From NCBI GenBank assembly GCA_903952785.1, contig CAJBHC010000076.1:1-37357 (forward strand): a DNA stretch of 37,357 bases, given 5' to 3'. The notes below the pieces were generated by a model that was not told where the DNA came from, ran no database searches, and worked only from the letters and a program-made list of their open reading frames with translations. This stretch comes from an uncultured bacterium. GTDB taxonomy: Bacteria > Patescibacteriota > Minisyncoccia > Phycocordibacterales > CAIZLB01. A program made the translations under genes and the position numbers. Numbering within the stretch: the stretch's first letter is position 1; every line of letters begins with the position of its first letter. This document shows positions 4,433-26,673 of the stretch, in pieces.

Positions 4433-4527
4433 GCTATAAACAACGACAATCAAGAAAAACAATCATGAACGTACCTTTCGGCCCGCGTCACATCTCTCAA
4501 TCAACATGTTAAAGAACTATATGGAGT

Positions 4528-4556
4528 ATTATATAACCATATGTTGATTTTGTCAA
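4528..4556 (-). promoter_or_regulatory. sigma70-type promoter (TTGACA-17 nt-TATAAT) for the 3979..4317 gene
   Basis: The minus strand reads TTGACA (4556..4551), a 17-nt spacer, then TATAAT (4533..4528). This implies a leader of about 200 nt ending in a CA-rich tract. Confidence 0.7.
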
Positions 4557-4573
4557 GTATTTTTTAAATATCC

Positions 4574-5128: not shown

Positions 5129-5214
5129 TTATAATGCATTGAATAAAAAAAAGCCAGAATTCTTATTTAATTAGATAAATATTTCTGTTTTGGCTAAGGT
5201 GTTTGGGGAGAGCC

Positions 5215-12145: not shown

Positions 12146-15103
12146 ATGAATAAGCAAAGAATAATCATGTCAGTATCGATATTTTTTGCTTTTGTCTTTT
12201 TTGTTTTTCCTAAAATATCTAGTGCTGATGTCTTACTCCCAGGAAGCATAAATACCTGTGGAGAGTTGGCTGTTCCTGGGGTCTATACTCTAACAACAAA
12301 TGTTGGAAATGGCACATCAACTTGTTTTACAATTTCATCTGATAACGTAATTATAAATGGTGGGGGATACACAATATCAGGATCAGGATCTGTTGCAATT
12401 GATGCTCGTCCAAGAACGGGTGGTCCATCAGGACCGCTCACTGAAGGAGCAAATGGATATACCAACCTGATTGTTAATGAATTAAATATCACAGGATACA
12501 CAACGGGAATCAATCTAAGTGGAAATGATGACTCGTCTGGAACAGGCGTAACAAATGGAGCTGGTGGAAATGGAGGAGATGTCGCAATTTATTATTCAAC
12601 TGTTGGTTCTATCACATCTGGTGGAGGTAACTCAACAACCAGGTCTTATGGAGGAATTGGTGGAAACATTCTACTCTCCAGTTTTGATTTAAATATTGCA
12701 AGTAGTACTCTTTCTGTTTTGGGTGGAACAGGAACTGCAGGAAGAAACACTGACGGAGGATTAGACTTGAATTATACAAACTCATTAATTAAAACAAGCC
12801 TGACACTTAGTTCACTTTATTTCTTAAATGATAATACTACAAACTATGGAGTTTACATTGGAGGAACGTGGCCATTGTTTCCGGGGGATATTTCAACTTG
12901 TGGAACTCTATTTGGATCAGGAACTTATACTTTGACTCAAAGTATAACTGGAGTTACTGACACTTGTTTTAAAATTGGATCAAACGATATTGTTCTTAAT
13001 GGTGCGGGATACACAGTGACTTCCGCAACTACTACAAACACTAGCTACTTTGCAAATGCATCAACCTTTTCCAACTTCACTCTTGCTTCTACTACCGCAA
13101 CAAACTTTTCTAATTTTGTAACTTCTTCCTCTACCGTCACAGTGTCGGGAACTATACTTAACCTGAGCAACAAGAGGATTACTTCCCCAAATGTTACAAT
13201 TGATGCAGGAGCATTGACGCTTACCTCTGCTATTTTTTCAACCTTAGTACTTAATATTAATTATTCCGTTTCAATTGCGGGAACGAGTACTGCTACAATA
13301 GCAACAAATATTACATCTTTCAAGATTAATAATCTTGAGTATGGGCCAAGGCTGACGTCTGATGCTCTATTTGGTGATGTGTGGCTAGCAAGAGATAATA
13401 CGAGAAGTTGGTACGGAATTACCTCCTCCGCCGACGGCGCCAAACTTGCTGCTGCGGTATATAACGGCTACATCTACACCTCTCAAGACTCTGGTGCAAC
13501 ATGGGCAACAAGCACAGGTTCAGGAATACACTATTGGAAGGATGTCACCTCTGACGCCTCTGGCACCAAACTTGCCGCGGTAGAAACAAATGGATATGTT
13601 TACACCTCCACTAATGGAGGAATAACATGGACACAGCAAATCTCGTCAGGTTCTCGGTCTTGGAATTCCATCGCCTCTTCAGCTGATGGAACAAAACTTA
13701 TCGCAGGCGTTGCTGGAGGCTATCTTTATACCTCTGTAGATAGTGGAGTGACTTGGAATCAACGTACATTTGATGTTGCAAGATCTTGGTATGATGTTGC
13801 TTCTGATGCCTCAGGCACCAAGCTCGTCGCGGTGGATTATAGCTATGGCTACATCTACACTTCCACCACGTCTGGTGCAACATGGACAACAAACGGAAAC
13901 TCTTCTGGTTCACGTACTTGGTATGGCATTACTTCCTCCGCCGATGGCACAAAACTTGCCGCGGTGGATTATAGCTATGGCTACATCTACACTTCCACCA
14001 CGTCTGGTGCAACATGGACAACAAACGGAAACTCTTCTGGTTCACGTACTTGGAATTCCATCACCTCCTCCGCCGATGGCACCAAACTTGCCGCGGTGGT
14101 TTCGGGTGGCCACATTTATTCCTCTTCAAACTCCGGTACAACATGGGCTCAACGTACATCTGGTGACACAAAGTCTTGGTACACTATCGCATCTTCTGCT
14201 GACGGTAATAAATTATTTGCGGGGACTTTGAGTAGTTATATTTACATAAACTCAAACCTAGATCCAGCATTGTCTGTGGATATAATGGTTCCGCAAGCAA
14301 GCAGTAGTATTTCAACTTGGAATCCTATAGTATCTTGGGGAATTTCTAGAAATTGTTATTATTCATATGATAACTTTGCTTCAACTTCAACTGCAGACTG
14401 TTCACTTAGTGGATCAGACATAATATCTCCTACGACAACCGGAAGTACAACTCTATATGTAAAAGGAATCAATAATAGTGATGAATTGATAACTAAATCA
14501 GTTAGCTTTACTAACAACAGTAATCAAAATATTCAAGTTAATTTACCGGCTTTGAATACTACATATGATGCTATGTCCTGGGTTCCAAATGTTAATTACA
14601 GCACCACAGATGCAGATATTGTAACTTGTCAATATTCATATAATAATTGGGTTTCATCTTCGACAGTAGATTGTGCCCTGGGTGGCTCTGATATATCCCC
14701 ACCACCAGATGGGTATGCTACCTTGTACATTCGAACTGTAGATTCTGAAAATAACGTAAACATTTCTTCAAGCGTTTTTTATTATGAATCATCTCTCTAT
14801 ACATATACGTCTTCAGGTTTAAGATATTGGAATTCGCTTACTGTATCAAATGATGGTAGTAAGATGATTGCTATTGTTGGTCAGGATTCCGGTACAAATT
14901 ATTATGGGCAAATTTATACTTCAAGTAATAGTGGCACAACCTGGACAGCAAGAGAAATAGTCACTTATTGGAATTCATTAGTATCATCATTTGATGCCGT
15001 AAAACTTGCTGTTATTAGTAGTTCCTGGATTTATACTTCAGTAGATGGTGGAGTTAATTGGGTAAAAAAACATCTGCTGGAAGTCGTAATTGGTACTCTA
15101 TAG
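12146..15103 (+). CDS. giant secreted surface protein, N-terminal part (two beta-helix caps, 7-bladed Asp-box/BNR propeller, two Cys-pair modules, first two blades of propeller 2)
   Basis: Signal peptide MNKQRIIMSVSIFFAFVFFVFPKISSA. Repeated W-x-x-I-[ST]-S-x-x-G-x-K-L-A-A ... IYTS-x-DSG-x-TW blades matching the Asp-box SxDxGxTW. The ORF ends 11 codons after an A7 run. Confidence 0.8.
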   Translation: MNKQRIIMSVSIFFAFVFFVFPKISSADVLLPGSINTCGELAVPGVYTLTTNVGNGTSTCFTISSDNVIINGGGYTISGSGSVAIDARPRTGGPSGPLTEGANGYTNLIVNELNITGYTTGINLSGNDDSSGTGVTNGAGGNGGDVAIYYSTVGSITSGGGNSTTRSYGGIGGNILLSSFDLNIASSTLSVLGGTGTAGRNTDGGLDLNYTNSLIKTSLTLSSLYFLNDNTTNYGVYIGGTWPLFPGDISTCGTLFGSGTYTLTQSITGVTDTCFKIGSNDIVLNGAGYTVTSATTTNTSYFANASTFSNFTLASTTATNFSNFVTSSSTVTVSGTILNLSNKRITSPNVTIDAGALTLTSAIFSTLVLNINYSVSIAGTSTATIATNITSFKINNLEYGPRLTSDALFGDVWLARDNTRSWYGITSSADGAKLAAAVYNGYIYTSQDSGATWATSTGSGIHYWKDVTSDASGTKLAAVETNGYVYTSTNGGITWTQQISSGSRSWNSIASSADGTKLIAGVAGGYLYTSVDSGVTWNQRTFDVARSWYDVASDASGTKLVAVDYSYGYIYTSTTSGATWTTNGNSSGSRTWYGITSSADGTKLAAVDYSYGYIYTSTTSGATWTTNGNSSGSRTWNSITSSADGTKLAAVVSGGHIYSSSNSGTTWAQRTSGDTKSWYTIASSADGNKLFAGTLSSYIYINSNLDPALSVDIMVPQASSSISTWNPIVSWGISRNCYYSYDNFASTSTADCSLSGSDIISPTTTGSTTLYVKGINNSDELITKSVSFTNNSNQNIQVNLPALNTTYDAMSWVPNVNYSTTDADIVTCQYSYNNWVSSSTVDCALGGSDISPPPDGYATLYIRTVDSENNVNISSSVFYYESSLYTYTSSGLRYWNSLTVSNDGSKMIAIVGQDSGTNYYGQIYTSSNSGTTWTAREIVTYWNSLVSSFDAVKLAVISSSWIYTSVDGGVNWVKKHLLEVVIGTL
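13828..14091 (+). repeat. tandem 132-nt (44-codon) duplication of one propeller blade
   Basis: 13828..13921 and 13960..14053 are identical over 94 nt (checked base by base). The rest of the unit differs at a few positions. Confidence 0.9.
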
Positions 15104-18100
15104 CTTCAGATACTACAGGTGCCAAACTCGCTGCTGTTGTAAATAACGGATATATCTATACCTCATCTGATTCTGGAGAAACATGGGCGACAAGTACTGG
15201 CTCCGGAGTACGTTTTTGGCGTTCAATTGTCTCTGATACTACCGGCACCAAACTTGCCGCCGTGGCTAATGGAGAATATATCTATACTTCCACAGATTCA
15301 GGTTTTTCATGGGCGACAAGTAGTTTAAGTGTTGGTTCACGTAACTGGTATTCCATCACCTCTGACGCATCTGGCACCAAACTTGCCGCCGTGGTTTATA
15401 ATGGTTACATTTATACTTCCGTAGATTCTGGTGTAACATGGTCAACTAGTACGTCAGCAGGCTCAAGATATTGGAAAGAAATTAAATATTCCTCTGATGG
15501 TACAAGACTAGTCGCCTCAACAGCTTCTACTGAAAAAATATATTTTTCAAATGACAACGGTCTAACATGGGTCAATAGAGGTGTTGATGGTATTTGGAGA
15601 ATACTTGGTTTTAATTCGCAGGGTAACAAGGTTTTTGTATCAAGCTCTGGTTCCTCAATTGCTGACTATATAAATGCAATTGACTTTACCTTTGATATTT
15701 CAGTTAATCAATATATTAAAATTAATAGTCCAATATTGAACGCTGTCTTGACTATTCAATCTTGGCTCCCTTCTGTAGAGTGGGGATTTAATAAAACAAC
15801 ATGTCAATATTCATACAATAATTGGGTCTCAACCTCAACAGCAAATTGTGTGTTGGGTGGGTCGGATATTTTACCACCTCAGTCAGAAGGCTCTAATACA
15901 TTGTATTTGAGGTCTGTTGATGCTATTAATAATGTGAGTATTACGAGTGTATTATTTAAATACTTTAGTAATGGTTGGAACCTCAGGGATTTAAATAAAA
16001 ATATCACATCTATTAGCACAGACATTTCTGGAAGAAAATTGGTTGCATTGACCGGTTCTAGTGTGACATATGATTATATTAACACATCTAATGATGGTGG
16101 ACTAAGTTGGATAGAAAGAATTTCGTCTACAAAACAAAACTGGCAAGGTTTAGCATCTGATGCATTAGGAGTAAAACTTGCAGCTATTGGATCAGATGGT
16201 TATATTTATCTTTCTATAGATTCCGGTATAAATTGGACAAAATCAACATATCTTACATCTAGGAGTTGGTCATCTATCACTTCATCTGCTGATGGATCAT
16301 ATTTAGCTGGAACAGTCAATAATGATTATATGTATTTTTCAACAGATTTTGGTGCAACATGGGCGACAAGTACCGGCTCGATTGCCTTAGGAAAACAAGC
16401 GTGGCAAAAGATTGCATCATCTGTAGATGGTAAGAAATTGATAGCTGCCGTCTACAATGGTTATATCTACACATCTGAGGATTATGGGGTGACGTGGGCA
16501 ACTAGCACATCGGCAGGATTAAGATATTGGAAATCGGTAGACTCATCTGCTGATGGAAGTACTTTGGTTGCGGTTGTTGGTGGAAATGGCGGAATGTATG
16601 ATGGTAGAATATATACATCTTATGACCGTGGTGTAAATTGGGTACCAAGAGATTCATCTAGGTCTTGGTGGGATGTCACTGTCTCGACAGATGGAAGTAA
16701 GATGGCTGCCATGGTTCGTAATTCGAATATTTATAACTCAACAGATGCTGGGGTCACTTGGTCTCCAAGTACAGGTTCTGATCAACTTAATTGGAAGTCC
16801 ATCACATCATCCGCAGACGGTAATAAATTATTTGCTGCTGTCCCGTATAGTGGTGTTTATGTACATGAATTATTGACACAAAGTATGGCGGCTGACATTT
16901 TGCTCCCCCAAAACCTCGCCATCACCACCGCCTGGAACCCCATCATCTCCTGGTCAACCGCCACCTCTTGCTACTACTCATACGACAACTGGGTCTCGAC
17001 CTCAACCGCTAACTGTGCACTTAATGGCTCTGACATCACTCCTCCATCAACATCAGGAACTGTCACACTATATATAAAAGGAATAGACGCTGGCGCTGTT
17101 GTTAAAACAAACACAAGTACTTTCACATACGCTCCTCACTACTGGTGTGGAACGGCTGACTCAAGTTGGACTAACGTAAGTAACTGGTATACTGATGCAA
17201 CGTGTTCTGTCAATAAAGGAAGTATTCCAACAAACACAAGTGGAGTATTTCTTGTTGAAAATACTTCTCCAATCATCTCTTGGTCAACCACCACACTTCC
17301 ACTATTTATTAATTCAACTGGACTCACGGGTGGAGCCAACACAGCGGGGGTAATTTTTGGAGGAACTGCATATAACAGTACGAAAATAGTAGGGAACGCA
17401 ACATTTAATGGCACCTCATACAACGCTGGAGAAATAACCGGTAATGCAATATTCAGTGCTGCATCAAACGGAACTTTTTCTCTTTCTGGCACAATGAAGT
17501 GGGATGGGACAATCGCTGGAACAATTAAAGGAGGAGATACATTGGATATCACTAATTTATTATTTAATAATTCAAGTAGTAACGAAACAACAATCGGAAA
17601 TACGATTTATGCTGTATTTAATGATAGCGCATCCAACAATGGAACAATAGACGGAAATGCAACATTCAATAATACTGGATTGTTCACTATGGGTACAGTT
17701 AACGGAACAACAACAATGAGTGGGTTAAGTCAGACATTAAATGGCGTGAACAATGTAGTTAATCTTGTAAAAAATATTGCAACAGTTATAAGAGACACTC
17801 TCTTCATCACTTCAGGTTCAATATTAAACATATCAGGTGGAACAACAATACAGGGGTATGATGCTAATAACTTATTAACCATTCAATCAACAATTCCAGG
17901 AATTCAAGCCTCACTTGGTATTAACGGAACTTCAACTTTAAATTATTTACGTATTAGGGATATCAACAACACTGGAGCAAACATTAATCTTTCAACCAAT
18001 ACAGTATTCAACGATGGTGGAAACACTGGCTTTACATTTGATGGAAGTAAGGCGATGGTACCAAGAGAAGGAATGACAAGTTCATATTTAAATGGAACAG

Positions 18101-20415
18101 ATCCAATCTTCCCTGGCACAATCAATAGCTGTGGCAACTTATATTTTGCAGGAACATATACACTGGGAGGAAATGTGGTTGGAAGTTGCAACATTGGGGT
18201 ACCTGGTGTGATAATAAACGGAGCGGGACATGCTCTAACAGGAGATATAACAGCAAATGAATATGGTGTCACACTTTCAAATATCACCGTAACTGGTGTA
18301 GTCTCCACAACTGGAGCTGGAGTCGGAACAATAACCATCAATAACGCATCAAATCTAACTGGATCATTAACCATAACTGGCTTTCTCGCAGGGGATGGAT
18401 CAAGTTCAGTGGCAAGTACGACAATTGATGGAAATGGAGTGGTTGCAACAAGTAGCGTGAGCTTTGTAGGAGAAGTTAAAAACAATGGGATAATATATAG
18501 TGGAAACTTTGTTGGTAACTTAACCAACAACGGAACAATAGAGAACAGTACAACTTCACCCGTTATAGCTTTAGGGAATACTTTAAACAACGGAGTCATT
18601 AATGGAGGATTTGTTTTGAACTCTAACTCAACTAACCATGGAACAATAAATGGAAATGTAGTGTTGAATGATAACTCAATAAACAGCGGAACGGTTAATG
18701 GAACAGTTTCAGTATATGATTCTTCACTAAACACGGGAATTGTCACTGGTGATTTGATATTGAATTCCATTTCATCTGCCTCTGGAGTTGTCTCATTTGG
18801 AACAACAACTAATTTTCTTGGAACTGGCCGTGTGATGGGTGCGGTCAGAGATCAGGCAAGTACGACAATCACGAAGTGGATATTTAACGGCGGAAGCACA
18901 AATAGTGGATATACTAAAGGGATGACATTTTTCAATGGAACAAGTACAAACTCCGGTACTATTTTGGGTCATTCATACTTTAATAACTCTTCAATAAATA
19001 CGGGAACTATAACTGGTGATGCTGATGTATACTATTTTGTTACGACACCACTTGGGGGCACTGTAACAGGAACAACCACATACTACTCATATCCAAACAC
19101 AAAGACATTTAATAATAGCGCGGGGGATGGAATGTGGAATAACTCACTAAACTGGTTTACAGATACGACACTTCAGACAAATCTTGGAGGACTTCCCGCA
19201 TCAGGTGAAGCTGTAGTTCTATTCTCTTCAACTACATTATTATCAAATGTAAATAATGATGTATATATTGGAGCGAACAATATAACAATAGACGGAGTAT
19301 CGGGAAAAAATATAGGCGGATTCATTTCTGGTAACGGAGCGTATGATGGAGGTAATGCATTCAACTTCAACTTGTTCAACCTGACTGTGACTGGAACCAC
19401 ATCTGCAAATGGAGCTGATAACAGTAATGGTGTGGGAGGAAAGGGGGGAAATATAAATATCTCAGCATCAATTACAGCAAACGTTATTGCCAATGGAGGA
19501 TATGGAACATTGGGGAGTGGGGATGGTGGAACCATTACTGTAACAAATCCAATAACGACAGGAGCGACAAACGGTGCTTCAACAGGTGGTGCATCAAATG
19601 GAAGGTCTAGTGGCACAAGCGGAGGCTCTCAGATTAATTTAGGATTAGCAAATAATCTAAACTTATCAAACCCTGAAAGGTCGCTAATAAATATAAACAG
19701 TAATTTTGGATTGCCACGTCGTGTCGTTACCCCGCCTCGTCGGGAAAGGCGTGACCCTCCAATTATAGTTGTCCAGATTCGTCCAGTTATAGTTTTAAAA
19801 GATCTTCCAAAAATATCTATTGATGATGCACTAAATAATTTCTTGGATGATTCACTTCCTGAGGATCTTGTTGATCTTTCTAATGCTGTTCCTTCAATCA
19901 AAAAGGAATTGAGATCTAGTAGTATTAGCGGTGGATATATTCTTTATAGGATGAAAGAAAGCCCTGTTAATACGCCGACATTAAAACAGTTTTTGAGTAC
20001 AAGGACTCAGCAACCTTACAACTTAATTTTTGTATCAGTTGATGGAGTGGGTAAACCAACCAAACTCTCTATTGACGCGAAGGGTAATTTGTATCAGATA
20101 GTAAACGTGGCTTCATATTCAGCCATTGGTGTGACTGCTAGGGAGAATAGCGAGAAGGTGATAGTTACATTTAATGGAAAGGAGACAAAGTTTGTCAAAG
20201 ATAATAAAAATATTGTTAAGGTTAACGTTGTTGTGCCAGGGGGTGGGGGTACAAACATCTTGAAAATTGGAAAATTGACACTTGAGGTTAGGGTAGATGA
20301 TACTTATGCTGGATCAGAGCGATTGGGCGAGATTGGAACCACAGCTCCAATTAAATTGGCATTTTATTGGTTCAGAGAGAATGTTAATAACTTTATCAAG
20401 GCGGTGAGGAGATAG
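15058..20415 (+). CDS. giant surface protein, C-terminal part (blades 3-7 of propeller 2, Cys-pair module, propeller 3, Cys-pair module, N/G/T-rich beta-helix repeats, C-terminal domain)
   Basis: The repeat pattern of the upstream ORF continues without a break. The annotated TTG start lies inside that repeat, so this is most likely the continuation of 12146..15103 and not an independent gene. Confidence 0.8.
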   Translation: MGKKTSAGSRNWYSIASDTTGAKLAAVVNNGYIYTSSDSGETWATSTGSGVRFWRSIVSDTTGTKLAAVANGEYIYTSTDSGFSWATSSLSVGSRNWYSITSDASGTKLAAVVYNGYIYTSVDSGVTWSTSTSAGSRYWKEIKYSSDGTRLVASTASTEKIYFSNDNGLTWVNRGVDGIWRILGFNSQGNKVFVSSSGSSIADYINAIDFTFDISVNQYIKINSPILNAVLTIQSWLPSVEWGFNKTTCQYSYNNWVSTSTANCVLGGSDILPPQSEGSNTLYLRSVDAINNVSITSVLFKYFSNGWNLRDLNKNITSISTDISGRKLVALTGSSVTYDYINTSNDGGLSWIERISSTKQNWQGLASDALGVKLAAIGSDGYIYLSIDSGINWTKSTYLTSRSWSSITSSADGSYLAGTVNNDYMYFSTDFGATWATSTGSIALGKQAWQKIASSVDGKKLIAAVYNGYIYTSEDYGVTWATSTSAGLRYWKSVDSSADGSTLVAVVGGNGGMYDGRIYTSYDRGVNWVPRDSSRSWWDVTVSTDGSKMAAMVRNSNIYNSTDAGVTWSPSTGSDQLNWKSITSSADGNKLFAAVPYSGVYVHELLTQSMAADILLPQNLAITTAWNPIISWSTATSCYYSYDNWVSTSTANCALNGSDITPPSTSGTVTLYIKGIDAGAVVKTNTSTFTYAPHYWCGTADSSWTNVSNWYTDATCSVNKGSIPTNTSGVFLVENTSPIISWSTTTLPLFINSTGLTGGANTAGVIFGGTAYNSTKIVGNATFNGTSYNAGEITGNAIFSAASNGTFSLSGTMKWDGTIAGTIKGGDTLDITNLLFNNSSSNETTIGNTIYAVFNDSASNNGTIDGNATFNNTGLFTMGTVNGTTTMSGLSQTLNGVNNVVNLVKNIATVIRDTLFITSGSILNISGGTTIQGYDANNLLTIQSTIPGIQASLGINGTSTLNYLRIRDINNTGANINLSTNTVFNDGGNTGFTFDGSKAMVPREGMTSSYLNGTDPIFPGTINSCGNLYFAGTYTLGGNVVGSCNIGVPGVIINGAGHALTGDITANEYGVTLSNITVTGVVSTTGAGVGTITINNASNLTGSLTITGFLAGDGSSSVASTTIDGNGVVATSSVSFVGEVKNNGIIYSGNFVGNLTNNGTIENSTTSPVIALGNTLNNGVINGGFVLNSNSTNHGTINGNVVLNDNSINSGTVNGTVSVYDSSLNTGIVTGDLILNSISSASGVVSFGTTTNFLGTGRVMGAVRDQASTTITKWIFNGGSTNSGYTKGMTFFNGTSTNSGTILGHSYFNNSSINTGTITGDADVYYFVTTPLGGTVTGTTTYYSYPNTKTFNNSAGDGMWNNSLNWFTDTTLQTNLGGLPASGEAVVLFSSTTLLSNVNNDVYIGANNITIDGVSGKNIGGFISGNGAYDGGNAFNFNLFNLTVTGTTSANGADNSNGVGGKGGNINISASITANVIANGGYGTLGSGDGGTITVTNPITTGATNGASTGGASNGRSSGTSGGSQINLGLANNLNLSNPERSLININSNFGLPRRVVTPPRRERRDPPIIVVQIRPVIVLKDLPKISIDDALNNFLDDSLPEDLVDLSNAVPSIKKELRSSSISGGYILYRMKESPVNTPTLKQFLSTRTQQPYNLIFVSVDGVGKPTKLSIDAKGNLYQIVNVASYSAIGVTARENSEKVIVTFNGKETKFVKDNKNIVKVNVVVPGGGGTNILKIGKLTLEVRVDDTYAGSERLGEIGTTAPIKLAFYWFRENVNNFIKAVRR
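15064..15070 (+). other. A7 homopolymer / A AAA AAA heptamer at the junction of the two giant ORFs (-1 frameshift site or indel)
   Basis: Frame 0 reads GTA AAA AAA CAT. The -1 frame continues with AAA AAA ACA TCT GCT GGA AGT CGT AAT TGG (KKTSAGSRNW), which restores the blade consensus. Confidence 0.75.
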
Positions 20416-20769: not shown

Positions 20770-20888
20770 ATGTGATTATAATTATATCTATGTGCGCAGC
20801 CGGTACTAGAATATTTTCTTCGCAAAGCTCGAAAATATAAAGTACCGCTGCATCACGAATATATATTCGCTACGCTCATTATATTCTG

Positions 20889-20960
20889 TGACCCTACCGG
20901 GAGTCGAACCCGGCTTTAAAGCTTGAAAAGCTTTCGTCCTAACCGATAGACGATAGGGCC
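20889..20960 (-). tRNA. tRNA-Glu (anticodon UUC)
   Basis: The minus strand reads GGCCCTA TC GTCT ... with anticodon stem AAAGC/GCTTT, loop TTTTCAA and T arm CCGGG-TTCGACT-CCCGG. The acceptor closes with one G-U pair. Confidence 0.85.
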
Positions 20961-21110
20961 ATATTGGCAGTATCTTTTGAATTTATTGCCTACAATCAAA
21001 GATGAAAGCAATAAGAAGAATATAACATATTTTCAGAAAAAATCAAAAAAATGAATAAAATTGCCACATGCAAGTGAATAATGCTATGCTTGCATAGTTG
21101 TGGTGGTATT

Positions 21111-21197
21111 GGAGAGATGGCTGAGTGGTTGAAGGCACCGCTCTCGAAAAGCGGCATGGGGGAAACCTCATCGAGGGTTCAAATCCCTCTCTCTCCG
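21111..21197 (+). tRNA. tRNA-Ser (anticodon CGA), type II with long variable arm
   Basis: Acceptor GGAGAGA/TCTCTCC, anticodon stem CCGCT/AGCGG with loop CTCGAAA, long variable arm, T arm GAGGG-TTCAAAT-CCCTC, discriminator G. Confidence 0.9.
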
Positions 21198-21220
21198 CAG
21201 TTTTGAACGCAGTGAAAAAA

Positions 21221-21364
21221 TGCGGAGAGAAGTAATGCATTTATGCATTATGTGAGGGGTTTGAAAGGGTTCTCCCATATTTTTGGAAGTGAACGAAGTG
21301 AGAGCTTCCAAAAATGGGAAACCCGTACAGGTCCTGTAAGGACTAAATCCCTCTCTCTCCGCAG
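21221..21364 (+). ncRNA. tRNA-Ser-linked structured element whose outer stems reuse the tRNA-Ser acceptor and T-stem sequences (function unknown)
   Basis: P1 GGAGAGA (21224..21230) / TCTCTCC (21354..21360). P2 TAATGC-atttat-GCATTA. P3 GAGGG (21254..21258) / CCCTC (21349..21353). P4 is a ~20-bp bulged hairpin at 21267..21324. P5 TACAG-gtc-CTGTA. The 3' 21 nt exactly repeat 21181..21201. Confidence 0.5.
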
Positions 21365-21400
21365 TGATTCGCGTTTAAGATATTCTTTAGACACTCACAA

Positions 21401-22291
21401 CTAAAGTGCTATTCTGTCATGCAGTCTCTGAATTCTATCAAATCTATCTTCGGTATCTTCAGCGTTGACTTCTAATGTATCTTTTATCATATTTAGAAGC
21501 TTGATGTTTTCAGGCTCTAATTTGGAAATTTCTAATGGGGAAGAGGTTCTCTCTATTTCTCTTAAATATTCTGATTCATTGAAAAAACCAATAAACTGTC
21601 TCTCTGGTATGTGATTAAGTATGAAATCTTTGTCAGATTCATTTCTAATTTTATTTGCAATAATAAAAAGATTTTTATGCACCCCACCTTCTTTTGCTAG
21701 GTGATTATAATGTTCAAAGACTTCAATACTCCTCTTTGTTGGTTCTACGATAAGGGCGAGTACATCAAATTGTGCGTGTAGAGTATTAGCAAAAGCGTCA
21801 ACTCCAGCGACCATGTCTGTTACAACATATCCATCTTTGTCCACAAGATGGTTTAAGATATTTTCAAATATAACAAGATTACCATGGTAACAACTCTTGC
21901 CGATTCTATCGTCTTCATATGTTCCAACAACTACAAGATGCAGATTGTCTTCTTTGACTGAATAATCCTTCAGTATACTTTTATCTAGATTGTGTATATC
22001 AATTAAATTAGACCCTTCACTTGGTAGAGTAGTCTTTCCCAAATCAACTATTTCTTTAATATTTGAATTACTTCCTATCAAATGTTTTTTGATAGTTGCT
22101 CTAGTCTCAAGTTTAGATATGTACATATCAGGCGATACACTTTCCTTGAAGCCAAATAGCTCAGGGAGGTGTATGTTTAAATCGGCATCAAAAACAAGCA
22201 CTGGCTTTTTTGTGCCAGCAACATGTTTTGAAAATAGGGCAGACAGGGTTGTCTTGCCACTTCCTCCTTTTCCAACAAAAGCAATTCTCAT
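21401..22291 (-). CDS. CooC-like (MinD/ParA-class, SIMIBI) P-loop ATPase, putative metallochaperone
   Basis: Deviant Walker A MRIAFVGKGGSGKTT, DADLN, and a switch-like TDMVAGVDAF (CooC has DxxAGxE). GKSCYHGN sits where CooC carries its CxC metal site. Confidence 0.65.
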   Translation of the reverse strand: MRIAFVGKGGSGKTTLSALFSKHVAGTKKPVLVFDADLNIHLPELFGFKESVSPDMYISKLETRATIKKHLIGSNSNIKEIVDLGKTTLPSEGSNLIDIHNLDKSILKDYSVKEDNLHLVVVGTYEDDRIGKSCYHGNLVIFENILNHLVDKDGYVVTDMVAGVDAFANTLHAQFDVLALIVEPTKRSIEVFEHYNHLAKEGGVHKNLFIIANKIRNESDKDFILNHIPERQFIGFFNESEYLREIERTSSPLEISKLEPENIKLLNMIKDTLEVNAEDTEDRFDRIQRLHDRIAL

Positions 22292-22305
22292 ACCTTAATT
22301 GAGGA

Positions 22306-22521
22306 TTATTCCGTTGATTCCGCTATTGGTTTAGCGTTTTCAATAAGAGTATTGTATTCAGCTACGGTCATTACAGTGCTTCCATTCTCAGGCTTAGCTG
22401 GATCATAAATTTTAACCATACCTTCCTCAACTAAGTGTTCAACCACGGGGCATCCACAGCTACATCCGTTGTTTCCACAAAACAATGCGCCATCATAAAC
22501 TAGAGTTTTAATACTTTTCAT
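22306..22521 (-). CDS. small Cys-rich protein (C15-x4-C20-x-C22-x-C24), putative metal-binding partner
   Basis: 71-aa ORF lying 14 nt upstream of the ATPase on the same strand. The N-terminus MKSIKTLVYDGALFCGNNGCSCGCP faintly recalls the ArsD N-terminal Cys cluster. Confidence 0.55.
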   Translation of the reverse strand: MKSIKTLVYDGALFCGNNGCSCGCPVVEHLVEEGMVKIYDPAKPENGSTVMTVAEYNTLIENAKPIAESTE

Positions 22522-22551
22522 ATTTTTTAATTGATTTATTTTATTAACAAA

Positions 22552-22566
22552 TGCGAGTAATTTGCA
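22552..22566. promoter_or_regulatory. operator-like 7-1-7 imperfect palindrome TGCGAGT-A-ATTTGCA, copy 1
   Basis: Lies 31 nt upstream of the Cys-rich gene start. Its reverse complement matches 22610..22624 at 12/15 positions, with all differences in the central 3 nt. Confidence 0.45.
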
Positions 22567-22609
22567 TTTAAATACATACTAATCCTTAAATAAAAATAAG
22601 TCAAGTTGT

Positions 22610-22624
22610 TGCAAATAGGTCGCA
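22610..22624. promoter_or_regulatory. operator-like motif TGCAAAT-AGG-TCGCA, copy 2 (inverted relative to copy 1)
   Basis: Lies 20 nt upstream of the Fur-family gene ATG and has Fur/Zur/PerR-box-like 7-1-7 geometry. Confidence 0.45.
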
Positions 22625-22643
22625 TCTATTGTATTATTAAATT

Positions 22644-23096
22644 ATGAAAAAAGGGGATAAGAATAACAGTAAAAATAAAGACGAAGCTTTAGTTGGTGTA
22701 CTACGTAATAATGGGTACAAGGTTACTCAAGGGCGTATCTCTATCTTGGAGGTTTTTTCCAAATATCATATTCCATTAAATGCTGAAAGTGTCTCCGGTT
22801 ATCTAAAAAATAAAAGGGTAGATGTAGCCACTATATACAGAACACTAAAGTCATTTGAAGAAAAAGGAATACTTAGAAGAGTTGATTTGAGAAATGATTC
22901 TGTTTGTTTTGAGATGAATGATAGTCATCACCATCATCATTTGGTTTGCAAAAAGTGCGGAGACATAGAAGACGTGGATGTTTGTGAAATAGATAGATTG
23001 AGTAAAATTGCATTGAAAAATTCACTAAAATTTAAATTAATAATAGATCATTCTCTGGAATTTTTTGGAGTATGTAAGACATGCAATAAGGTTTAA
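22644..23096 (+). CDS. Fur-family metalloregulator (Fur/Zur/PerR type not resolvable)
   Basis: Winged-helix N-domain (ATIYRTLKSFEEKGILRRV), His cluster DSHHHHHLVCKKCG, and a second CxxC (CKTC). Confidence 0.85.
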   Translation: MKKGDKNNSKNKDEALVGVLRNNGYKVTQGRISILEVFSKYHIPLNAESVSGYLKNKRVDVATIYRTLKSFEEKGILRRVDLRNDSVCFEMNDSHHHHHLVCKKCGDIEDVDVCEIDRLSKIALKNSLKFKLIIDHSLEFFGVCKTCNKV

Positions 23097-23123
23097 AATT
23101 AATAGCTTACAGGTCTATTTTTA

Positions 23124-23166
23124 AATAAAAAAATCACCACGACAGGGTTACTGTCGTGGATTTTTT
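23124..23166. terminator. bidirectional rho-independent terminator
   Basis: An A-run, then CCACGACAG-ggtta-CTGTCGTGG, then TTTTTT. It sits between the convergent Fur-family gene and the PEP-CTERM gene. Confidence 0.75.
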
Positions 23167-23198
23167 GAGGGTGGCCATGTCCCTCGGTGTTATAGTGG

Positions 23199-24173
23199 TT
23201 ATGCCGCCATCTTCATTGAGCGCCGCGTCCGGATTAATAGGCTGGATCCAAGGAAACAGCCGACGGCCAACAGGCTTCCAGGTTCGGGGATGGCGGAGAT
23301 GTTGATCGGAAGTATTCCTCCCTTCATCCCGTCATTTGAACACCCCGTGCCCGCAAAAAACGTTACCGGCGTCTGGGGATCCAGCCAGCTGAACATGCTG
23401 GTCGGGACCTCAAAGCCCCAGATTAACTGATCCGCATAGGCATAACCGGTGTTGACCCCGGTTGTCGCCAGCGTGTCTGCTGTGTTCATTGTGCGCACCT
23501 CCGTTGTCTTTGTAAATATAACGGAGTCTGCACTGGATGAGATTAACGCCCACGGATCTGAGGCCCAATTCAGACCGAACTCGCCCCGTTGTAGGATTGA
23601 GTCAGGGCCTAGTCCCACAACTTGGTACGTCATGGTGTTGCCACTAACGCTAATGATGTTCAGAGCATATTCAAATCCGTATGAGGAATTTAGCTGGTTG
23701 ACGTGCCCATCCCCACTCCTTGGAGTTGGGCTTAGGTGGTTACCATCCGTATCAACGAACACGGTTTGGAAACCGTGACCTTCGGTGTTGACGGTGGAAC
23801 GGGGATCAAACCCGCTCACCATCCAGACGGTTGAGGTGGTAGCGGTGACATTCGGCTGGAAGCCAAACCCCATCAAGTCCCACTTCTTGCCAGTCTCACA
23901 GTTTGGGTTGACCTGTCCAATCTCCCCAATCCCTGGCCGGGGGTCTGTGCCAAACAGGGCGGGTTTAACGATCCCATCGGGGCGGGTGACGTCGCGGGCC
24001 ACTGAGGGCCCACCGAAATCAATCGTCACGAACGATGGTGTTGGTGGTGGATCGGCCCTAACCTTAGGGGTCATGCCGACGAGTAGGGTGATTGCCATGG
24101 CTAGTGAGGCCACAACACCGATAATTGCGCCCAAGACGCGTTTTCCTTTTCTCATTGTTTTTGACTTGGTCAA
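23199..24173 (-). CDS. secreted protein with C-terminal PEP-CTERM-type sorting signal (G+C-rich ORFan)
   Basis: N-terminal signal or anchor (RVLGAIIGVVASLAMAITLLVG) and C-terminus IPEPGSLLAVGCFLGSSLLIRTRRS (PEP motif, hydrophobic helix, Arg cluster). The 24173 start is TTG, and the ATG at 24155 is a likelier start. Confidence 0.65.
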   Translation of the reverse strand: MTKSKTMRKGKRVLGAIIGVVASLAMAITLLVGMTPKVRADPPPTPSFVTIDFGGPSVARDVTRPDGIVKPALFGTDPRPGIGEIGQVNPNCETGKKWDLMGFGFQPNVTATTSTVWMVSGFDPRSTVNTEGHGFQTVFVDTDGNHLSPTPRSGDGHVNQLNSSYGFEYALNIISVSGNTMTYQVVGLGPDSILQRGEFGLNWASDPWALISSSADSVIFTKTTEVRTMNTADTLATTGVNTGYAYADQLIWGFEVPTSMFSWLDPQTPVTFFAGTGCSNDGMKGGILPINISAIPEPGSLLAVGCFLGSSLLIRTRRSMKMAA

Positions 24174-24205
24174 ACCGTGTTTCTCTAATGGTTCAATCCA
24201 CGGTC

Positions 24206-24234
24206 AATATATCGCAATCCGCCTTACTTGTCAA
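24206..24234 (-). promoter_or_regulatory. sigma70-type promoter (TTGACA-17 nt-TATATT) for the PEP-CTERM gene
   Basis: The minus strand reads TTGACA (24234..24229), a 17-nt spacer, then TATATT (24211..24206). Confidence 0.6.
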
Positions 24235-24238
24235 TACA

Positions 24239-24817
24239 TTAGTCTTGTGGTGTAATAGTACCCAGTATTTTGTGCTTAATCAATAGTTTGTTGACAGTAT
24301 CGATTTGTTCTTTAATTTCAACGCTAATCTTTGGCTGTCTTGTTTCTAGTGTTGACTTAAGAATGGAGATCATCTTTGTAACTTGTGATAAGGCTGTTTC
24401 GATATACATTTCTTGACCCGATGTCTGAGATGTATGATCGACAGTTGTTAATAGAGCGCTTATAACACTGAGATATTCAAACATAAAATCATCCAACTCG
24501 AAGACTTTGTTTATTTTAATAAGCAGAGCGCTAATTTGAGATGATATTTTTTCCTTCACTGCTACATCGCTTATAATGCGTAAACCAGCTCTCAAATTAT
24601 TAATTTCACCATAGAAATATTCTCGAATTGTTACATCACTTCTGTCAAACATTTGAGCAGTTCTTGTTGAATCAAACGTTCCGTAATTATTTTCTGATTC
24701 TGTTCTGTCTAATTCTTCAATTTGAGAAGTAAATTTTGCGACCCTGCTTTCTATAGCTTCAACCATTAACAGTTGAGTTTCTTCTTCAGAGACAAGATTT
24801 TCTGGAAAGGGCTTCAT
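24239..24817 (-). CDS. hypothetical helical protein
   Basis: 192-aa ORF with no recognisable motif. Separated by 7 nt from the upstream gene on the same strand. Confidence 0.5.
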   Translation of the reverse strand: MKPFPENLVSEEETQLLMVEAIESRVAKFTSQIEELDRTESENNYGTFDSTRTAQMFDRSDVTIREYFYGEINNLRAGLRIISDVAVKEKISSQISALLIKINKVFELDDFMFEYLSVISALLTTVDHTSQTSGQEMYIETALSQVTKMISILKSTLETRQPKISVEIKEQIDTVNKLLIKHKILGTITPQD

Positions 24818-24824
24818 TTTGTCA

Positions 24825-25376
24825 TTAATTTATTAATGCAAATCTCTTAACTGAGGCTTTTGGCCGACCATTCTCATCTAGTTCATTTTCTCCAAAAACC
24901 TTCATGCTTGTAAATTCTTCGTATTCCCTGACCCAAATTGGATTGTGCCCAAACTCTGGGGAGTCATACTGTCCTTCGTAAATAATGAACTTATTTTTTG
25001 GATTTTTAGGATCGCAGGCAATAGCCTTAATAATATAATAGTCTTTTGTTTTGAAATGTTGATATTTTTGTCCGATAGATACAGCAGACTCTTCATCATC
25101 CTCTTTTGATTCCTCGGTGGCTTGTGCAGTATGTGTTTCTTCGTCAAAATCATCCATATTTTTTATGTCAACCATTTTCTTTAGATAGTGCTTTTCTGGA
25201 ACACTGCCTTGCCCATCAGTTATTTTTTTGTATACAATAAAGAGGTCTTCAATGTTCCCAGACTCTCTGGCTATAAAATCTACTAGATATTCATTACCTT
25301 CTGATGTTGCATATCTTTGTCCAGCTTCAAAATGCATAACTTTTGATTCTTGATGGTGCGTAGTTGATTCAGTCAT
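24825..25376 (-). CDS. hypothetical protein with two DUF1653-like repeats
   Basis: GQKYQHFKTKDYYIIKAIACDPKNPKNKFIIYEGQYD ... IWVREYEEF resembles the DUF1653 pattern (Y-x-H-[YF]-K ... VVY ... WVRP..F). A weaker N-terminal copy is present (GQRYATSEGNEYLVDFIARES ... FIVYKKI). Confidence 0.5.
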   Translation of the reverse strand: MTESTTHHQESKVMHFEAGQRYATSEGNEYLVDFIARESGNIEDLFIVYKKITDGQGSVPEKHYLKKMVDIKNMDDFDEETHTAQATEESKEDDEESAVSIGQKYQHFKTKDYYIIKAIACDPKNPKNKFIIYEGQYDSPEFGHNPIWVREYEEFTSMKVFGENELDENGRPKASVKRFALIN

Positions 25377-25427
25377 GCTTTATATGATATTGTATTAAGG
25401 ACTATTGTGCAACAATAGGGAAGAGAT

Positions 25428-25501
25428 GGGCGATTAGCTCAGTTGGCTAGAGCGCAGACTTGACGTGTCTGAGGCCACAGGTTCGAGCCCTGTATCGCCC
25501 A
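25428..25501 (+). tRNA. tRNA-Val (anticodon GAC)
   Basis: Acceptor GGGCGAT/ATCGCCC, D arm GCTC-AGTTGGCTA-GAGC, anticodon stem CAGAC/GTCTG with loop TTGACGT, T arm ACAGG-TTCGAGC-CCTGT, discriminator A. Confidence 0.9.
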
Positions 25502-25508
25502 CAATAAT

Positions 25509-25537
25509 AAAAACACATGAATTATTCATGTGTTTTT
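25509..25537 (+). terminator. AT-rich hairpin plus T-run directly after tRNA-Val
   Basis: AAAAACACATGAA-tta-TTCATGTGTTTTT is a perfect 13-bp palindrome. Confidence 0.55.
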
Positions 25538-25547
25538 ATTATCAATG

Positions 25548-25678
25548 GGGCGATAGGAAGTGCTTTTAAGCACTTCCGGCAGGGCGAGAAAAGCTTTGCG
25601 ATGTTTTGAGAATCTGAAGGATTCGATAAAACCGCAAAGGTATACTGGTTCCGTAGGAACCGAGCCCTGTATCGCCCA
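25548..25678 (+). ncRNA. tRNA-Val-linked structured element whose outer stems reuse the tRNA-Val acceptor and T-stem sequences (function unknown)
   Basis: P1 GGGCGAT (25548..25554) / ATCGCCC (25671..25677). P2 GGAAGTGC-ttttaa-GCACTTCC. P3 CAGGGC (25580..25585) / GCCCTG (25664..25669). P4 is a 17-bp bulged hairpin at 25594..25639. P5 GGTTCC-gta-GGAACC. The 3' 18 nt exactly repeat 25484..25501. Confidence 0.5.
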
Positions 25679-25710
25679 AAAGCTTAAGTAAAACAAATCA
25701 TACTCACCAC

Positions 25711-26673
25711 CTATCTTTTGCTAAGGCTCATATATATGTCCTCCAGCGCTTTTACTGCATCTCCCACCGCTATGTTGTTTTGATGATATAAACCGTTTGT
25801 ACAGTCACCAGCAGCCCAAATACCGGGTGTTTTTGTCCGTTCTGTCATCGGGTCTACAATTATTTTATTATATTCATTTAGCTCTACAATATCCTTCACA
25901 AAAGAAGTTGCCGGGATCATTCCAATCTCTACAAAGATTCCATTTACTGCTAATTCTTTCTCCTCACCTGTTTCTGTATTTTTATATATCAAACCATTAA
26001 CGAATTGTTCGCCTTTAACCTCTATAACTTCAGCGGGTGTAATCAGACTAACATTTGGTTTTGCTAGGACTTTCTCAACTGTGACAGGGTCAGCTCTCCA
26101 GGTTTTGCTTCTGTTTATTATTGTCACACTTTTGCAATATGCGGAAAGTTGAGCGGCGGACTCAAGTGCAGCATTTCCACCACCTATAACTACAACATCA
26201 GTACCTCCAAATAGGGGGCCATCGCAGGACGCACAATATGTCAGACCTTTATGCTCAAATATATCTGCTCCTTTGGCGGGAAGTTTTCTATGTGCACTTC
26301 CTGTCGCTATTAAAACTGATTTAGAAATTACATCAACAGTTTCTTCTCCAGATGAACTTTTCATCTTTGAAACAAATAGGGGGTTTGCATCTGTATAATC
26401 TGCATGCTTTTTAACAGAGATAATTCTATTACTAGTTTTTATTTCAACCACATCTCCCGCATAAGCCCGCAAGTGATCTTCCAGTGATTTTGCTAAATCA
26501 GTACCAGAAATTTTTATAGTTCCAATCCAGTTTTCTATACCCTCTGACACAATACTTTGGCCAGCAAAATCCTCTGTCACCAAAAGAGTTTGTATTTTTT
26601 TACGAGAAGCATAAACACCCGCCGCAACCCCAGCGGGGCCACCACCAATGATTAGAAGATCATATGTTTTCAT
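25711..26673 (-). CDS. trxB: thioredoxin-disulfide reductase
   Basis: GGGPAG FAD motif, redox CASCDG, GGGNAALE NADPH motif, and a C-terminal GDC...Q region. Confidence 0.88.
   Translation of the reverse strand: MKTYDLLIIGGGPAGVAAGVYASRKKIQTLLVTEDFAGQSIVSEGIENWIGTIKISGTDLAKSLEDHLRAYAGDVVEIKTSNRIISVKKHADYTDANPLFVSKMKSSSGEETVDVISKSVLIATGSAHRKLPAKGADIFEHKGLTYCASCDGPLFGGTDVVVIGGGNAALESAAQLSAYCKSVTIINRSKTWRADPVTVEKVLAKPNVSLITPAEVIEVKGEQFVNGLIYKNTETGEEKELAVNGIFVEIGMIPATSFVKDIVELNEYNKIIVDPMTERTKTPGIWAAGDCTNGLYHQNNIAVGDAVKALEDIYMSLSKR

Follow-up and report, generated by a model that had tools for sequence, protein, structure and literature searches.

The closest described analogue of the element reported here is the tRNA-linked repeat rtT of the Escherichia coli tyrT locus, known also as the RtT small RNA (RF00391). 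Its units, which are annotated in RefSeq as processed from the tyrT transcript, are arranged in tandem at this single tRNA, and each ends with a copy of the last 19 nt of the tRNA, from the T loop onward (AATCCTTCCCCCACCACCA). Among RNAs that imitate tRNAs, the tRNA-like domain of transfer-messenger RNA (tmRNA) and the YrlA/Y-RNA-like mimics are reported to be acted on by tRNA-maturation enzymes. We know of no described RNA family organised as tRNA-matched copies of acceptor and T stems, and to our knowledge the RNA biology of the Patescibacteria (candidate phyla radiation, CPR) is almost unexplored. Here we describe a 131-nt structured element that follows the tRNA-Val(GAC) gene in a 37-kb chromosomal contig (CAJBHC010000076.1, 37,357 nt; hereafter the window) from a Parcubacteria-like member of the Patescibacteria, together with a paralogous element that follows tRNA-Ser(CGA). 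The analysis establishes that the element is real, that its Val- and Ser-linked forms are homologous, that its structure covaries and is under purifying selection with a bias to one strand, and that its closing helices are tailored to the neighbouring tRNA.

The Val-linked element is tied to its tRNA by an 18-nt sequence, CGAGCCCTGTATCGCCCA, which occurs exactly twice, at 25484-25501 and 25661-25678, with no third site in the window even when two mismatches are allowed and with a chance expectation of 0.00 in 100 shuffles. The first copy spans tRNA-Val from C56 of the T loop to the discriminator A73. Among 93 tRNAs in the window and all other sequence compared, a perfect downstream copy of the 3' end within 400 nt was found for only two, Val and Ser. 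The minimum free energy (MFE) and centroid structures from RNAfold are the same, a P1-[P2]-P3-[P4,P5] fold of about -65 kcal/mol (z-score -7.47), and 0 of 200 shuffles proved as stable; a search for inverted repeats recovers GGGCGATA/TATCGCCC, CAGGGC/GCCCTG and the P2 hairpin GGAAGTGCTT/AAGCACTTCC. The preliminary description of this DNA had placed both the repeat and the listed stems correctly, the stems to within a few bases, and was right that tRNA-Phe and tRNA-Glu lack such a partner. Several of its dimensions are revised. P4 lies where it was placed, yet comprises 19 pairs in three segments closed by a GAA loop rather than 17 bp with a TGAAG loop; P3 pairs CAGGGC with GCCCTG as proposed, with seven base pairs including a G.U rather than six, so that P1 and P3 together present an unbroken 14-nt paired 3' strand; and the AT-rich hairpin ahead of the element, given as 13 bp at 25509..25537, has perfect 19-nt arms at 25504-25542.

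The arrangement of these helices reproduces parts of a tRNA. P1 (element positions 1-7 with 124-130) is identical on both strands to the acceptor stem of tRNA-Val; P2 occupies the place of the D, anticodon and variable arms; P3 contains the T-stem 5' strand CAGG of tRNA-Val, and its GC extension pairs 2 bp into the former T loop. P4 and P5 stand in for T54-C56, the 5' half of the T loop, and the 5' strand of P5, GGTTC, equals tRNA positions 52-56. A8 and A116 are unpaired, and A131 corresponds to the discriminator. The element thus has the structural features of a minihelix mimic, namely a 7-bp P1, a P3 that includes a 5-bp T stem, the unbroken 3' strand and a discriminator (A73 in the Val copy, G73 in the Ser copy). 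The Val element is a tRNA acceptor/T "minihelix" in which P2 and P4-P5 replace the arms and the T loop.

The Ser-linked copy was compared with a covariance model, R1, built from two intact Val copies only (those of the window and of the relative L075, introduced below) with a hand-checked structure; searched against the window with filters off, R1 detects the Ser copy over all model positions 1-131 (59.8 bits, E 7e-13). The closing helices of that copy are those of tRNA-Ser(CGA), GGAGAGA/TCTCTCC from the acceptor stem and GAGGG/CCCTC from the T stem; it carries the discriminator G of this tRNA and is separated from it by a 21-nt spacer devoid of any hairpin. Its repeat, whose length in the preliminary description required correction, is 21 nt (AAATCCCTCTCTCTCCGCAGT) and includes 4 nt of the 3' trailer, which marks it as a copy of the gene or precursor and not of the mature, CCA-ended tRNA. 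The Val and Ser copies have the same RNAfold architecture (z -7.47 and -8.49) and share the abstract shape [[][[][]]], which only 1.3% and 1.0% of their dinucleotide shuffles adopt; the common order of parts reported earlier therefore holds, and chance does not account for it. The earlier statement that the stems are built from entirely different nucleotides is too strong, although the closing helices P1 and P3 do differ between the copies at 9 of 14 pairs, each being equal to its own tRNA. Shared between the two are the P2 apex A-R-TGC-W-TTTA-W-GCA-Y-T, the P4 AU bulge followed by a U4-5:A4-5 helix, GU..AC in J4/5, the P5 pattern GGTNNN-GTA-NNNAC, and single A residues at J1/2 and J5/3. As judged from these sequences, the Val and Ser elements share their non-tRNA core by common descent. 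R1 finds no further copy in the window and no new one in 371 kb of related and other loci.

Selection on the element was examined in syntenic loci of relatives, fetched by means of the adjacent gene for a thioredoxin-reductase-like flavoprotein (TrxR) and numbered with the prefix L. The element is identical in four independent assemblies of the same species (L065-L068). Among records in ENA, ERZ18659389, ERZ27313536 and ERZ19026949 carry it. L075, whose TrxR shares 82% amino-acid identity with that of the window, carries an intact Val element at 4124-4254 on the minus strand, in the same place and after a different terminator hairpin. L003/L004 (TrxR 84%) hold a disrupted copy, with an insertion of ~40 nt in P4, a 2-nt bulge in P5, a P1 3' strand replaced beside an inserted open reading frame (ORF), and a compensatory change from C-G to T-A in P3; L076 (TrxR 80%) retains only a 15-nt remnant, GGGCGATAGAAGGTG. 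Further members, whose absence the preliminary description had named as a refutation, were found within a narrow range: three more lineages have the Val type, in intact, disrupted and remnant form respectively, and the search added no new tRNA specificity. Between the window and L075, 125 of 131 element positions are identical (95.4%), compared with 77.7% for the TrxR gene, 53% for its third codon positions, 56% for third positions within identical amino acids and 64% for the tRNA-element spacer and terminator.

The six differences from L075 are themselves informative, since four make up the compensatory exchange of two P5 pairs (GGTTCC/GGAACC to GGTCTC/GAGACC), one replaces U.G by C-G at the apex of P4 (a change seen in L003 as well), and one falls in J4/5. 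Compensatory P5 pairs number two in L075, one in L003 and two in the Ser copy. In a structural alignment of four sequences (three Val copies and the Ser copy), fitted to the model, 95.8% of cells are paired, and 22 of 49 pairs show changes on both sides, as against 6.3 +/- 2.0 in shuffled alignments (0/500 reach this count) and 0-5 in slid controls. The borders of the conserved block coincide in the carrier lineages with tRNA-like position 1 and the discriminator, and both the -1 base and the 3' flank differ among lineages. At three positions L003 and L075 agree with each other against the window (C at the apex of P4, G in J4/5 and C in P5), in keeping with their TrxR similarities and with vertical descent. 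The intact copies, including the Ser copy, have folding z-scores of about -7.5, -8.5 and -9.5. These comparisons show that base pairing and most of the element sequence are under strong purifying selection. They bear out the proposal that the fold is conserved and its closing helices fitted to the adjacent tRNA, and contradict the view, put forward earlier as a possible refutation, that both copies are attachment-site (att) scars devoid of structural conservation: the element is 95% conserved beside third codon positions at 53%. The sample comprises one clade, two tRNA specificities, three intact copies and one disrupted copy. As a separate observation, L067 and L068 have an extra C inside tRNA-Val (GGTTCGAGCCCCTGT) that produces an 8-nt T loop, and the element's copy of this segment is unchanged; with the tRNA copy polymorphic and the element copy not, the two are evidently not being homogenised.

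The pairing also distinguishes the strands. For each of the three intact copies, the fold of the tRNA-sense strand is more stable than that of the antisense strand by 7-10 kcal/mol (sense/antisense -65.1/-57.3, -61.3/-51.4 and -67.3/-60.2 kcal/mol), and G.U pairs number 4 and 4 in the sense folds vs 1 and 1 in the antisense folds. This asymmetry in energy and in G.U pairs favours a single-stranded molecule of the tRNA sense, most simply an RNA. The coordinates of the element, its parts and the adjoining features are collected in Table 1.

Table 1. Positions in the window of the tRNA-Val-linked element, its structural parts, and associated features.
Feature	Coordinates	Strand	Basis
tRNA-Val(GAC), cognate of the element	25428..25501	+	ARAGORN; Rfam tRNA model, 66.6 bits
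T1 hairpin, perfect 19-nt arms, AT-rich, flanked by A-run and T-run	25504..25542		inverted-repeat search
Whole Val-linked element, 131 nt, from the equivalent of tRNA position 1 to the discriminator	25548..25678	+	fold; model R1, 159 bits
P1 5' strand GGGCGAT, equal to the tRNA-Val acceptor 5' strand	25548..25554	+	repeat search
P2 hairpin, 9 bp, UUUA loop (element 9-30); apex kept in the Ser copy	25556..25577	+	fold; model R1
P3 5' strand GCAGGGC (element 32-38 with 117-123)	25579..25585	+	fold; 100% of alignment cells paired
J3/4 purine-rich linker GAGAAAAG; GAAA in the Ser copy	25586..25593	+	sequence; model R1
P4 long hairpin (element 47-92): 7 bp, AU bulge, 6-bp U-tract:A-tract, 1x2 internal loop, 6 bp, GAA	25594..25639	+	fold; alignment
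J4/5 GTATAC; GTGTAC in L075 and L003; GTAC in the Ser copy	25640..25645	+	comparison
P5 hairpin (T)GGTTCC-GTA-GGAACC(G) (element 99-115)	25646..25662	+	fold; compensatory changes
Repeat copy 2: P3 3' strand 25664-25670, P1 3' strand 25671-25677, discriminator A 25678	25661..25678	+	repeat search
Ser-linked paralogous element	21224..21361	+	model R1, 59.8 bits, E 7e-13; fold z -8.49

The region between tRNA-Val and the convergent TrxR gene defines the borders of the element as a unit. The T1 hairpin looks, from its sequence, like a bidirectional terminator between the tRNA and the element, and homologous, rapidly diverging hairpins are present in L056, L003 and L001, that is, in relatives with and without the element (for example, ACACATGAATTATTCATGTGT in the window vs ACAGCATGAGTAATTCATGCTGT in the element-free L056). 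In L056 and L001 the flank after the terminator continues where the window's flank after the element does, so that the Val element is a discrete unit lying between the tRNA terminator and the next terminator, which in L075 is the hairpin of a region that we designate X. In L071 the tRNA is followed directly by X, an arrangement that a deletion between the two 18-mers would also leave. Comparison of empty sites accordingly gives two pictures: L071 set against L075, and likewise the Ser locus, fit a tRNA followed directly by the distal flank, and L001 and L056 keep the terminator and lack the element only. At the Ser locus the native flank follows the second repeat copy. The two Val repeats enclose 159 bp with no credible ORF.

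Some relatives carry an ORF of 122-135 amino acids between tRNA-Val and TrxR (L071, 3955-4870, and also L072; related arrangements in L001, 11017-11600, and L003, 10990-11560), for which no Pfam or PHROG match was obtained. In L071/L072 it is flanked by direct repeats of X of ~110 nt, each consisting of the terminator hairpin followed by GCTTGT...ACAAGC and TTGGTC-AAA-GACCAA stems; X has no Rfam match. The occurrence of X-ORF, ORF-X or X alone among the relatives suggests a small mobile cassette. A further observation concerns the tRNA, spacer and element folded jointly (25428-25680, and 21111-21366 for the Ser locus), for which the MFE structure is "domain-swapped": the 5' acceptor strand of the tRNA pairs with the distal 3' copy and the 3' end of the tRNA pairs with the P1/P3 5' strands of the element, enclosing the terminator hairpin. 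The mirrored arrangement, too, is recognised by R1, with 37 bits at 25486-25585 of the minus strand. On these two observations the locus can be viewed as a tRNA whose T loop contains an insertion of 177 nt, and on these structure predictions it is possible that the domain-swapped form acts as a folding switch in read-through transcripts.

The interpretation to which we incline, at somewhat better than an even chance, treats the element as an accessory and lineage-restricted RNA gene whose structured product, encoded on the tRNA-sense strand, mimics the cognate tRNA at its ends and is probably released by tRNA-processing enzymes. Transcription would start either at the tRNA promoter, with read-through into the element, or at a weak promoter belonging to the element. 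The Ser copy, having no hairpin in its spacer, would share a dicistronic precursor with tRNA-Ser, and transcripts that reach the Val copy by read-through would need to get past a leaky hairpin. The tRNA-like ends would allow RNase P to trim the 5' side, and tRNA 3'-processing and CCA-adding enzymes to trim the 3' side, with release of a stable RNA of 131-138 nt; the limits of conservation at tRNA-like positions 1 and 73 are the one indirect hint of such tRNA-type processing. Factors that recognise acceptor arms would then meet, in this product, the arm of one particular tRNA. Candidate roles are those of a decoy or competitor while the cognate tRNA matures, of a minihelix that can be charged, or simply of a scaffold for processing or stability of the P2/P4/P5 core.

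A number of points weigh against this interpretation. Recognition by RNase P, RNase Z, the CCA-adding enzyme and the synthetases is conjecture, given that the element has no T loop, D arm or anticodon arm, and P1 of the Ser copy can run 3 bp past the discriminator, which is un-tRNA-like. A strong terminator-like hairpin separates tRNA-Val from the element, and no convincing promoter precedes it; the only candidates ahead of the Val element are inconsistent -10-like hexamers in the T-run of that hairpin. The hairpin and the want of a clear promoter are the chief weaknesses. Good folding is seen in the antisense strand too (z about -8), as expected of any set of DNA palindromes, and the alignment behind the covariation count is small. 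The Val element is absent from most close relatives (L001/2, L055, L056/57, L058, L071/72 and L073/74), and no Ser element was found in the relatives examined; absence, disruption and a remnant in close relatives mean that the element is not essential and leave room for a mobile origin. No member was found outside the clade in the scans described below, which used a strict motif and covered metagenomes incompletely.

Speculation can be carried further. The elements may be a class, so far undescribed, of dedicated tRNA-arm mimics, in which a shared three-hairpin core is fitted with the acceptor and T stems and the discriminator of one tRNA, is handled by that tRNA's enzymes (possibly including the cognate synthetase, minihelices of Val and Ser tRNAs being weak synthetase substrates), and either acts on tRNA maturation as a species-specific decoy or regulator or serves outside translation as a carrier that can be charged. 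We consider this specific form of the proposal rather unlikely. A bolder variant still would have the paired copy of the tRNA gene end guide homing of the element to a position beside its cognate tRNA.

The alternatives to an RNA gene differ in which features of the locus they leave unexplained. A small non-autonomous mobile or integrative DNA element might home to its cognate tRNA gene, the inverted and direct tRNA 3'-end copies serving as recombination or targeting determinants (for example, as a folded single-stranded att site that imitates the end of the tRNA gene), the hairpins as protein-binding or single-stranded DNA structures, and the patchy distribution reflecting gain and loss; we assign this origin a low probability. 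The direct repeat does begin in the T loop and end at, or shortly beyond, the end of the tRNA, which is the usual extent of the identity block of tRNA-targeting integrases, the trailer in the Ser repeat indicates a copy made at the DNA level, and the 18-mer forms part of partial-tRNA att-like sites in nine viral contigs. Presence also varies among close relatives, the closest (L001) lacking the element and a more distant clade having it; the flank past copy 2 in L075 and at the Ser locus resembles the flank that directly follows the tRNA in element-free relatives; the tRNA-TrxR spacer is a hot spot of insertion, as the X-ORF-X cassette illustrates; and the unit formed by copy 1, T1 and the core is a circular permutation of the element. 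However, no recombinase, transposase or reverse transcriptase lies nearby, near-identical multiple copies are lacking (the paralogues share motifs and structure, not sequence), and nothing related appears in IMG/VR, phage records or the scanned metagenomes. T1 is orthologous to the terminator of element-free relatives, so that the Val insertion lies after the terminator and not inside the tRNA. Conservation of 95% at one syntenic site against saturated synonymous sites, with compensatory differences, points instead to long-term selection on single-stranded pairing, and the G.U asymmetry favours one strand.

The same conservation bears on a less probable history, in which the tRNA gene was duplicated in tandem together with its terminator and the element, comparable to tyrT/rtT, is what decays of the duplicate, transcribed and processed with the tRNA and without a function of its own. 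Such an origin would account for the presence in order of tRNA positions 1-7, 50-53, 52-56 and 56-73 within the element, and for the A-rich run and hairpin that follow both repeat copies (T1, and the X hairpin in L075), the following bases being 79% alike; in E. coli, too, the rtT units start within the T loop (AATCC...), retain GAAGG as T-stem 5' strand and have their T loop interrupted by a hairpin. Two independent duplications would not, however, gain the same non-tRNA core (the P2 apex, the P4 AU bulge and U-tract, and the P5 GTA loop; E 7e-13), neutral decay is incompatible with 95% identity and compensatory substitutions at ~56% synonymous identity, and E. coli rtT is ordinary in folding stability (z -0.19), whereas the element has z-scores of -7.5 to -9.5. 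Very improbable, finally, is a role on the opposite strand or in duplex DNA, as a 3'-untranslated-region stabiliser or terminator for TrxR and the CbiA-like ATPase gene that converges on the Ser copy (stop codons 32-36 nt away), or as a cruciform or protein-binding site. Both copies do lie about 33-40 nt beyond a convergent stop codon, their antisense strands fold far beyond shuffles (z -8.25 and -7.47), and a weak promoter-like site is present on the minus strand at 25724-25697. Yet the antisense folds are the weaker ones by 7-10 kcal/mol, pairs being lost where sense G.U becomes A.C; in L075 the X terminator stands between TrxR and the element, so that TrxR transcripts should stop before reaching it; and the tRNA-specific closing helices and conserved loops would be left unexplained.

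Several established identities were considered and set aside. Rfam 15, searched across the window at the gathering score and through 20800-25800 and L075 at E<=10, yields no family match to the element, including tRNA, tmRNA, RtT, Y-RNA-like RNAs, ribozymes and introns, and returns only true tRNAs and chance hits. For tRNA itself (RF00005), ARAGORN calls the four true tRNAs only, and cmscan at E<=10 gives no tRNA match on 25548-25678 or 21224-21361. A tmRNA is contradicted by the lack of an ARAGORN call, of a T loop and of an Rfam match, and by a 3:70 pair that is G-C (Val) or A-U (Ser). The sole RtT match (RF00391; 17.3 bits against a gathering score of 45, E 9.9) lies on the minus strand over tRNA-Ser itself. 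A riboswitch or 5' leader would require a plus-strand gene downstream, and the next ORFs are on the minus strand; a retron or diversity-generating retroelement (DGR) RNA finds neither an adjacent reverse transcriptase nor an RVT match in the window. Miniature inverted-repeat transposable elements and other insertion sequence (IS)-derived repeats are rejected on the terminal helices, which differ between the copies and equal the local tRNA, and on the lack of observed target-site duplications and near-identical copies, and relics of IS200/IS605, an IS110 bridge RNA or a TnpB omega-RNA on the lack of such genes and of shared ends. Group I, group II or archaeal-type introns give no model matches, and the element is too small and its removal leaves no anticodon arm. 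A recombinase-bearing element integrated between tRNA att repeats is incompatible with the enclosed segment, which is without a credible ORF, and with the lack of a recombinase among the tested window ORFs. An assembly artefact is excluded by the identical element in independent assemblies (L065-L068) and its presence in L075 and L003/4.

Wider searches for family members were limited. The motif TTTAWGCAN{60,90}GGTYCYGTARGRAC gave three matches in IMG/VR and 24 in GTDB, all of them chance matches (in coding sequence, with no tRNA and no tail repeat); the motif is too strict, and since the L075 orthologue (P5 GGTCTC) would itself fail it, the GTDB negative says little. The Val-specific pattern GGGCGATN{95,125}GCCCTGTATCGCCCA, itself sound, gave five matches in JGI metagenomes, each a chance GGGCGAT ahead of a real tRNA-Val, in a search of incomplete coverage that did not return the window's own contig, and 0 matches in IMG/VR; its Ser analogue gave three matches, none of them a member. 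BLAST of both elements against phage records returned nothing, and literature searches found no description of such an element.

In IMG/VR, the 18-mer and a 19-mer occur in true tRNAs and in classical partial-tRNA att sites of unrelated high-GC phages. Nine high-GC viral contigs (L009-L012, L015, L016, L019-L021) carry a stand-alone partial tRNA-Val in which the 18-mer extends upstream to the anticodon loop, and one viral contig holds a full tRNA-Val (L014) as well as a partial copy (L011); by their sequence these partial copies are classical att sites, unrelated to the element. A separate viral sequence, L078 (IMGVR_UViG_3300048010_000613, 4807-4955, minus strand), contains a tRNA-Ser(UGA)-like sequence with a T-loop insertion of ~60 nt, …GGGGATTCGA[CGTAGCGAAGCGGAG…CGAGCGAAGCGAGTC]AATCCCTCTCTCTCCG, which is called by neither ARAGORN nor the Rfam tRNA model; within its insert is GCGAAGCG, a word shared with the hairpin that E. 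coli rtT has at the T-loop position (L069, 1420-1440).

The wider setting is chromosomal. The window encodes valyl-tRNA synthetase (ValRS), TsaD, FtsZ, FtsA, histidyl-tRNA synthetase (HisRS), Pth, a signal peptidase and TrxR, whose best named homologues are from metagenome-assembled genomes of Parcubacteria, Pacebacteria, Taylorbacteria and Patescibacteria, and no integrase, resolvase, transposase or reverse transcriptase was found among the window ORFs tested (Pfam scan, neighbours included). Four tRNA genes are recognised by ARAGORN and Rfam: Phe, Glu, Ser(CGA) at 21111-21197, and Val(GAC). The genes next downstream of both elements are convergent, on the minus strand, and encode TrxR, which ends 32 nt from the Val element, and a CbiA/ParA-like ATPase. 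Upstream of tRNA-Val, the block TTATATGATATTGTATTAA (25379-25400) is kept in all relatives compared (L001, L003, L056, L058) and is probably the divergent promoter region of tRNA-Val and a DUF1653 gene, with the extended -10-like sequence TGTATTAA; tRNA-Ser is preceded by TTGCCA-18-TGnTATGCT. No motif comparable to these promoter-like blocks lies ahead of either element.

Two very large ORFs (985 and 1785 amino acids) occupy 12146-20415; they are rich in "YIYTS..G.TW" repeats, lie in different frames with a 46-nt overlap, and are possibly a single frameshifted gene for a giant surface protein. The orthologous gene of L001, of 1759 amino acids, lies on the opposite side of the tRNA-Ser/tRNA-Glu pair, which therefore marks a rearrangement breakpoint. 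L003/L004, the loci with the disrupted element, carry two features that are not in the window: a DGR-like pair of an RVT_1 reverse transcriptase and bAvd between ftsA and ftsZ (4480-5891), and a large serine recombinase with Resolvase and Recombinase domains that abuts tRNA-Glu and tRNA-Ser (13375-15123).

If the element is a functional RNA, it would represent a compact example of a noncoding RNA family in which each member is matched to a specific tRNA through copied acceptor and T stems, and at 131 nt it is small enough for biochemistry with RNase P, the CCA-adding enzyme, ValRS and seryl-tRNA synthetase (SerRS). Should it prove to be a homing element instead, its targeting device, a base-paired copy of the target, would be an unusual one. 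The likely impact is limited by the narrow distribution known so far and by the dispensability of the element. On sequence and predicted structure, it is placed as a tRNA-linked, tRNA-like RNA that matches no described RNA family, and each of the known systems resembles it in part.

Like the attL and attR sites of tRNA-targeting integrases, the locus has a direct repeat of 18-21 nt that runs from the T loop to or past the tRNA end, and it lies in a variable region beside a tRNA; unlike these sites, it has only ~110 nt between the repeats besides the native terminator, no integrase, an interior of conserved fold that pairs with the repeat, a Val element placed after the tRNA's own terminator, and a record of long-term purifying selection. 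Integron attC and CTX-phage attP(+) sites likewise consist of imperfect inverted repeats, in which one strand folds into a helix that imitates a duplex recombination target, the terminal structure is variable and the structure is strand-specific; this likeness is by analogy only, as no integron integrase or Xer context, no R and L boxes and no cassette arrays were found. The tmRNA and YrlA mimics, which are functional precedents for tRNA mimicry in bacteria, are alike in that pairing of their ends forms an acceptor-like stem, which stacks on a T-stem-like helix, and the interior is replaced by other structure. They keep a real T loop, which the element lacks, and have a generic or alanine-specific acceptor rather than a copy from a neighbouring tRNA, and a functional RNA of the present kind would add to this short list of bacterial tRNA mimics. 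The likeness is greatest to rtT, which has no match to the element in sequence or by model, no acceptor-stem closure, no unusual stability and no tRNA-tailored paralogues around a common core, but which, like the element, directly follows a tRNA gene of like orientation, retains the T-stem 5' strand with a hairpin in the T-loop position, and ends in a copy of the tRNA 3' part, in the element an exact copy of 18 nt (Val) or 21 nt (Ser). As a functional RNA, the element would be a structured, selected counterpart to these poorly understood tRNA-linked repeats of E. coli.

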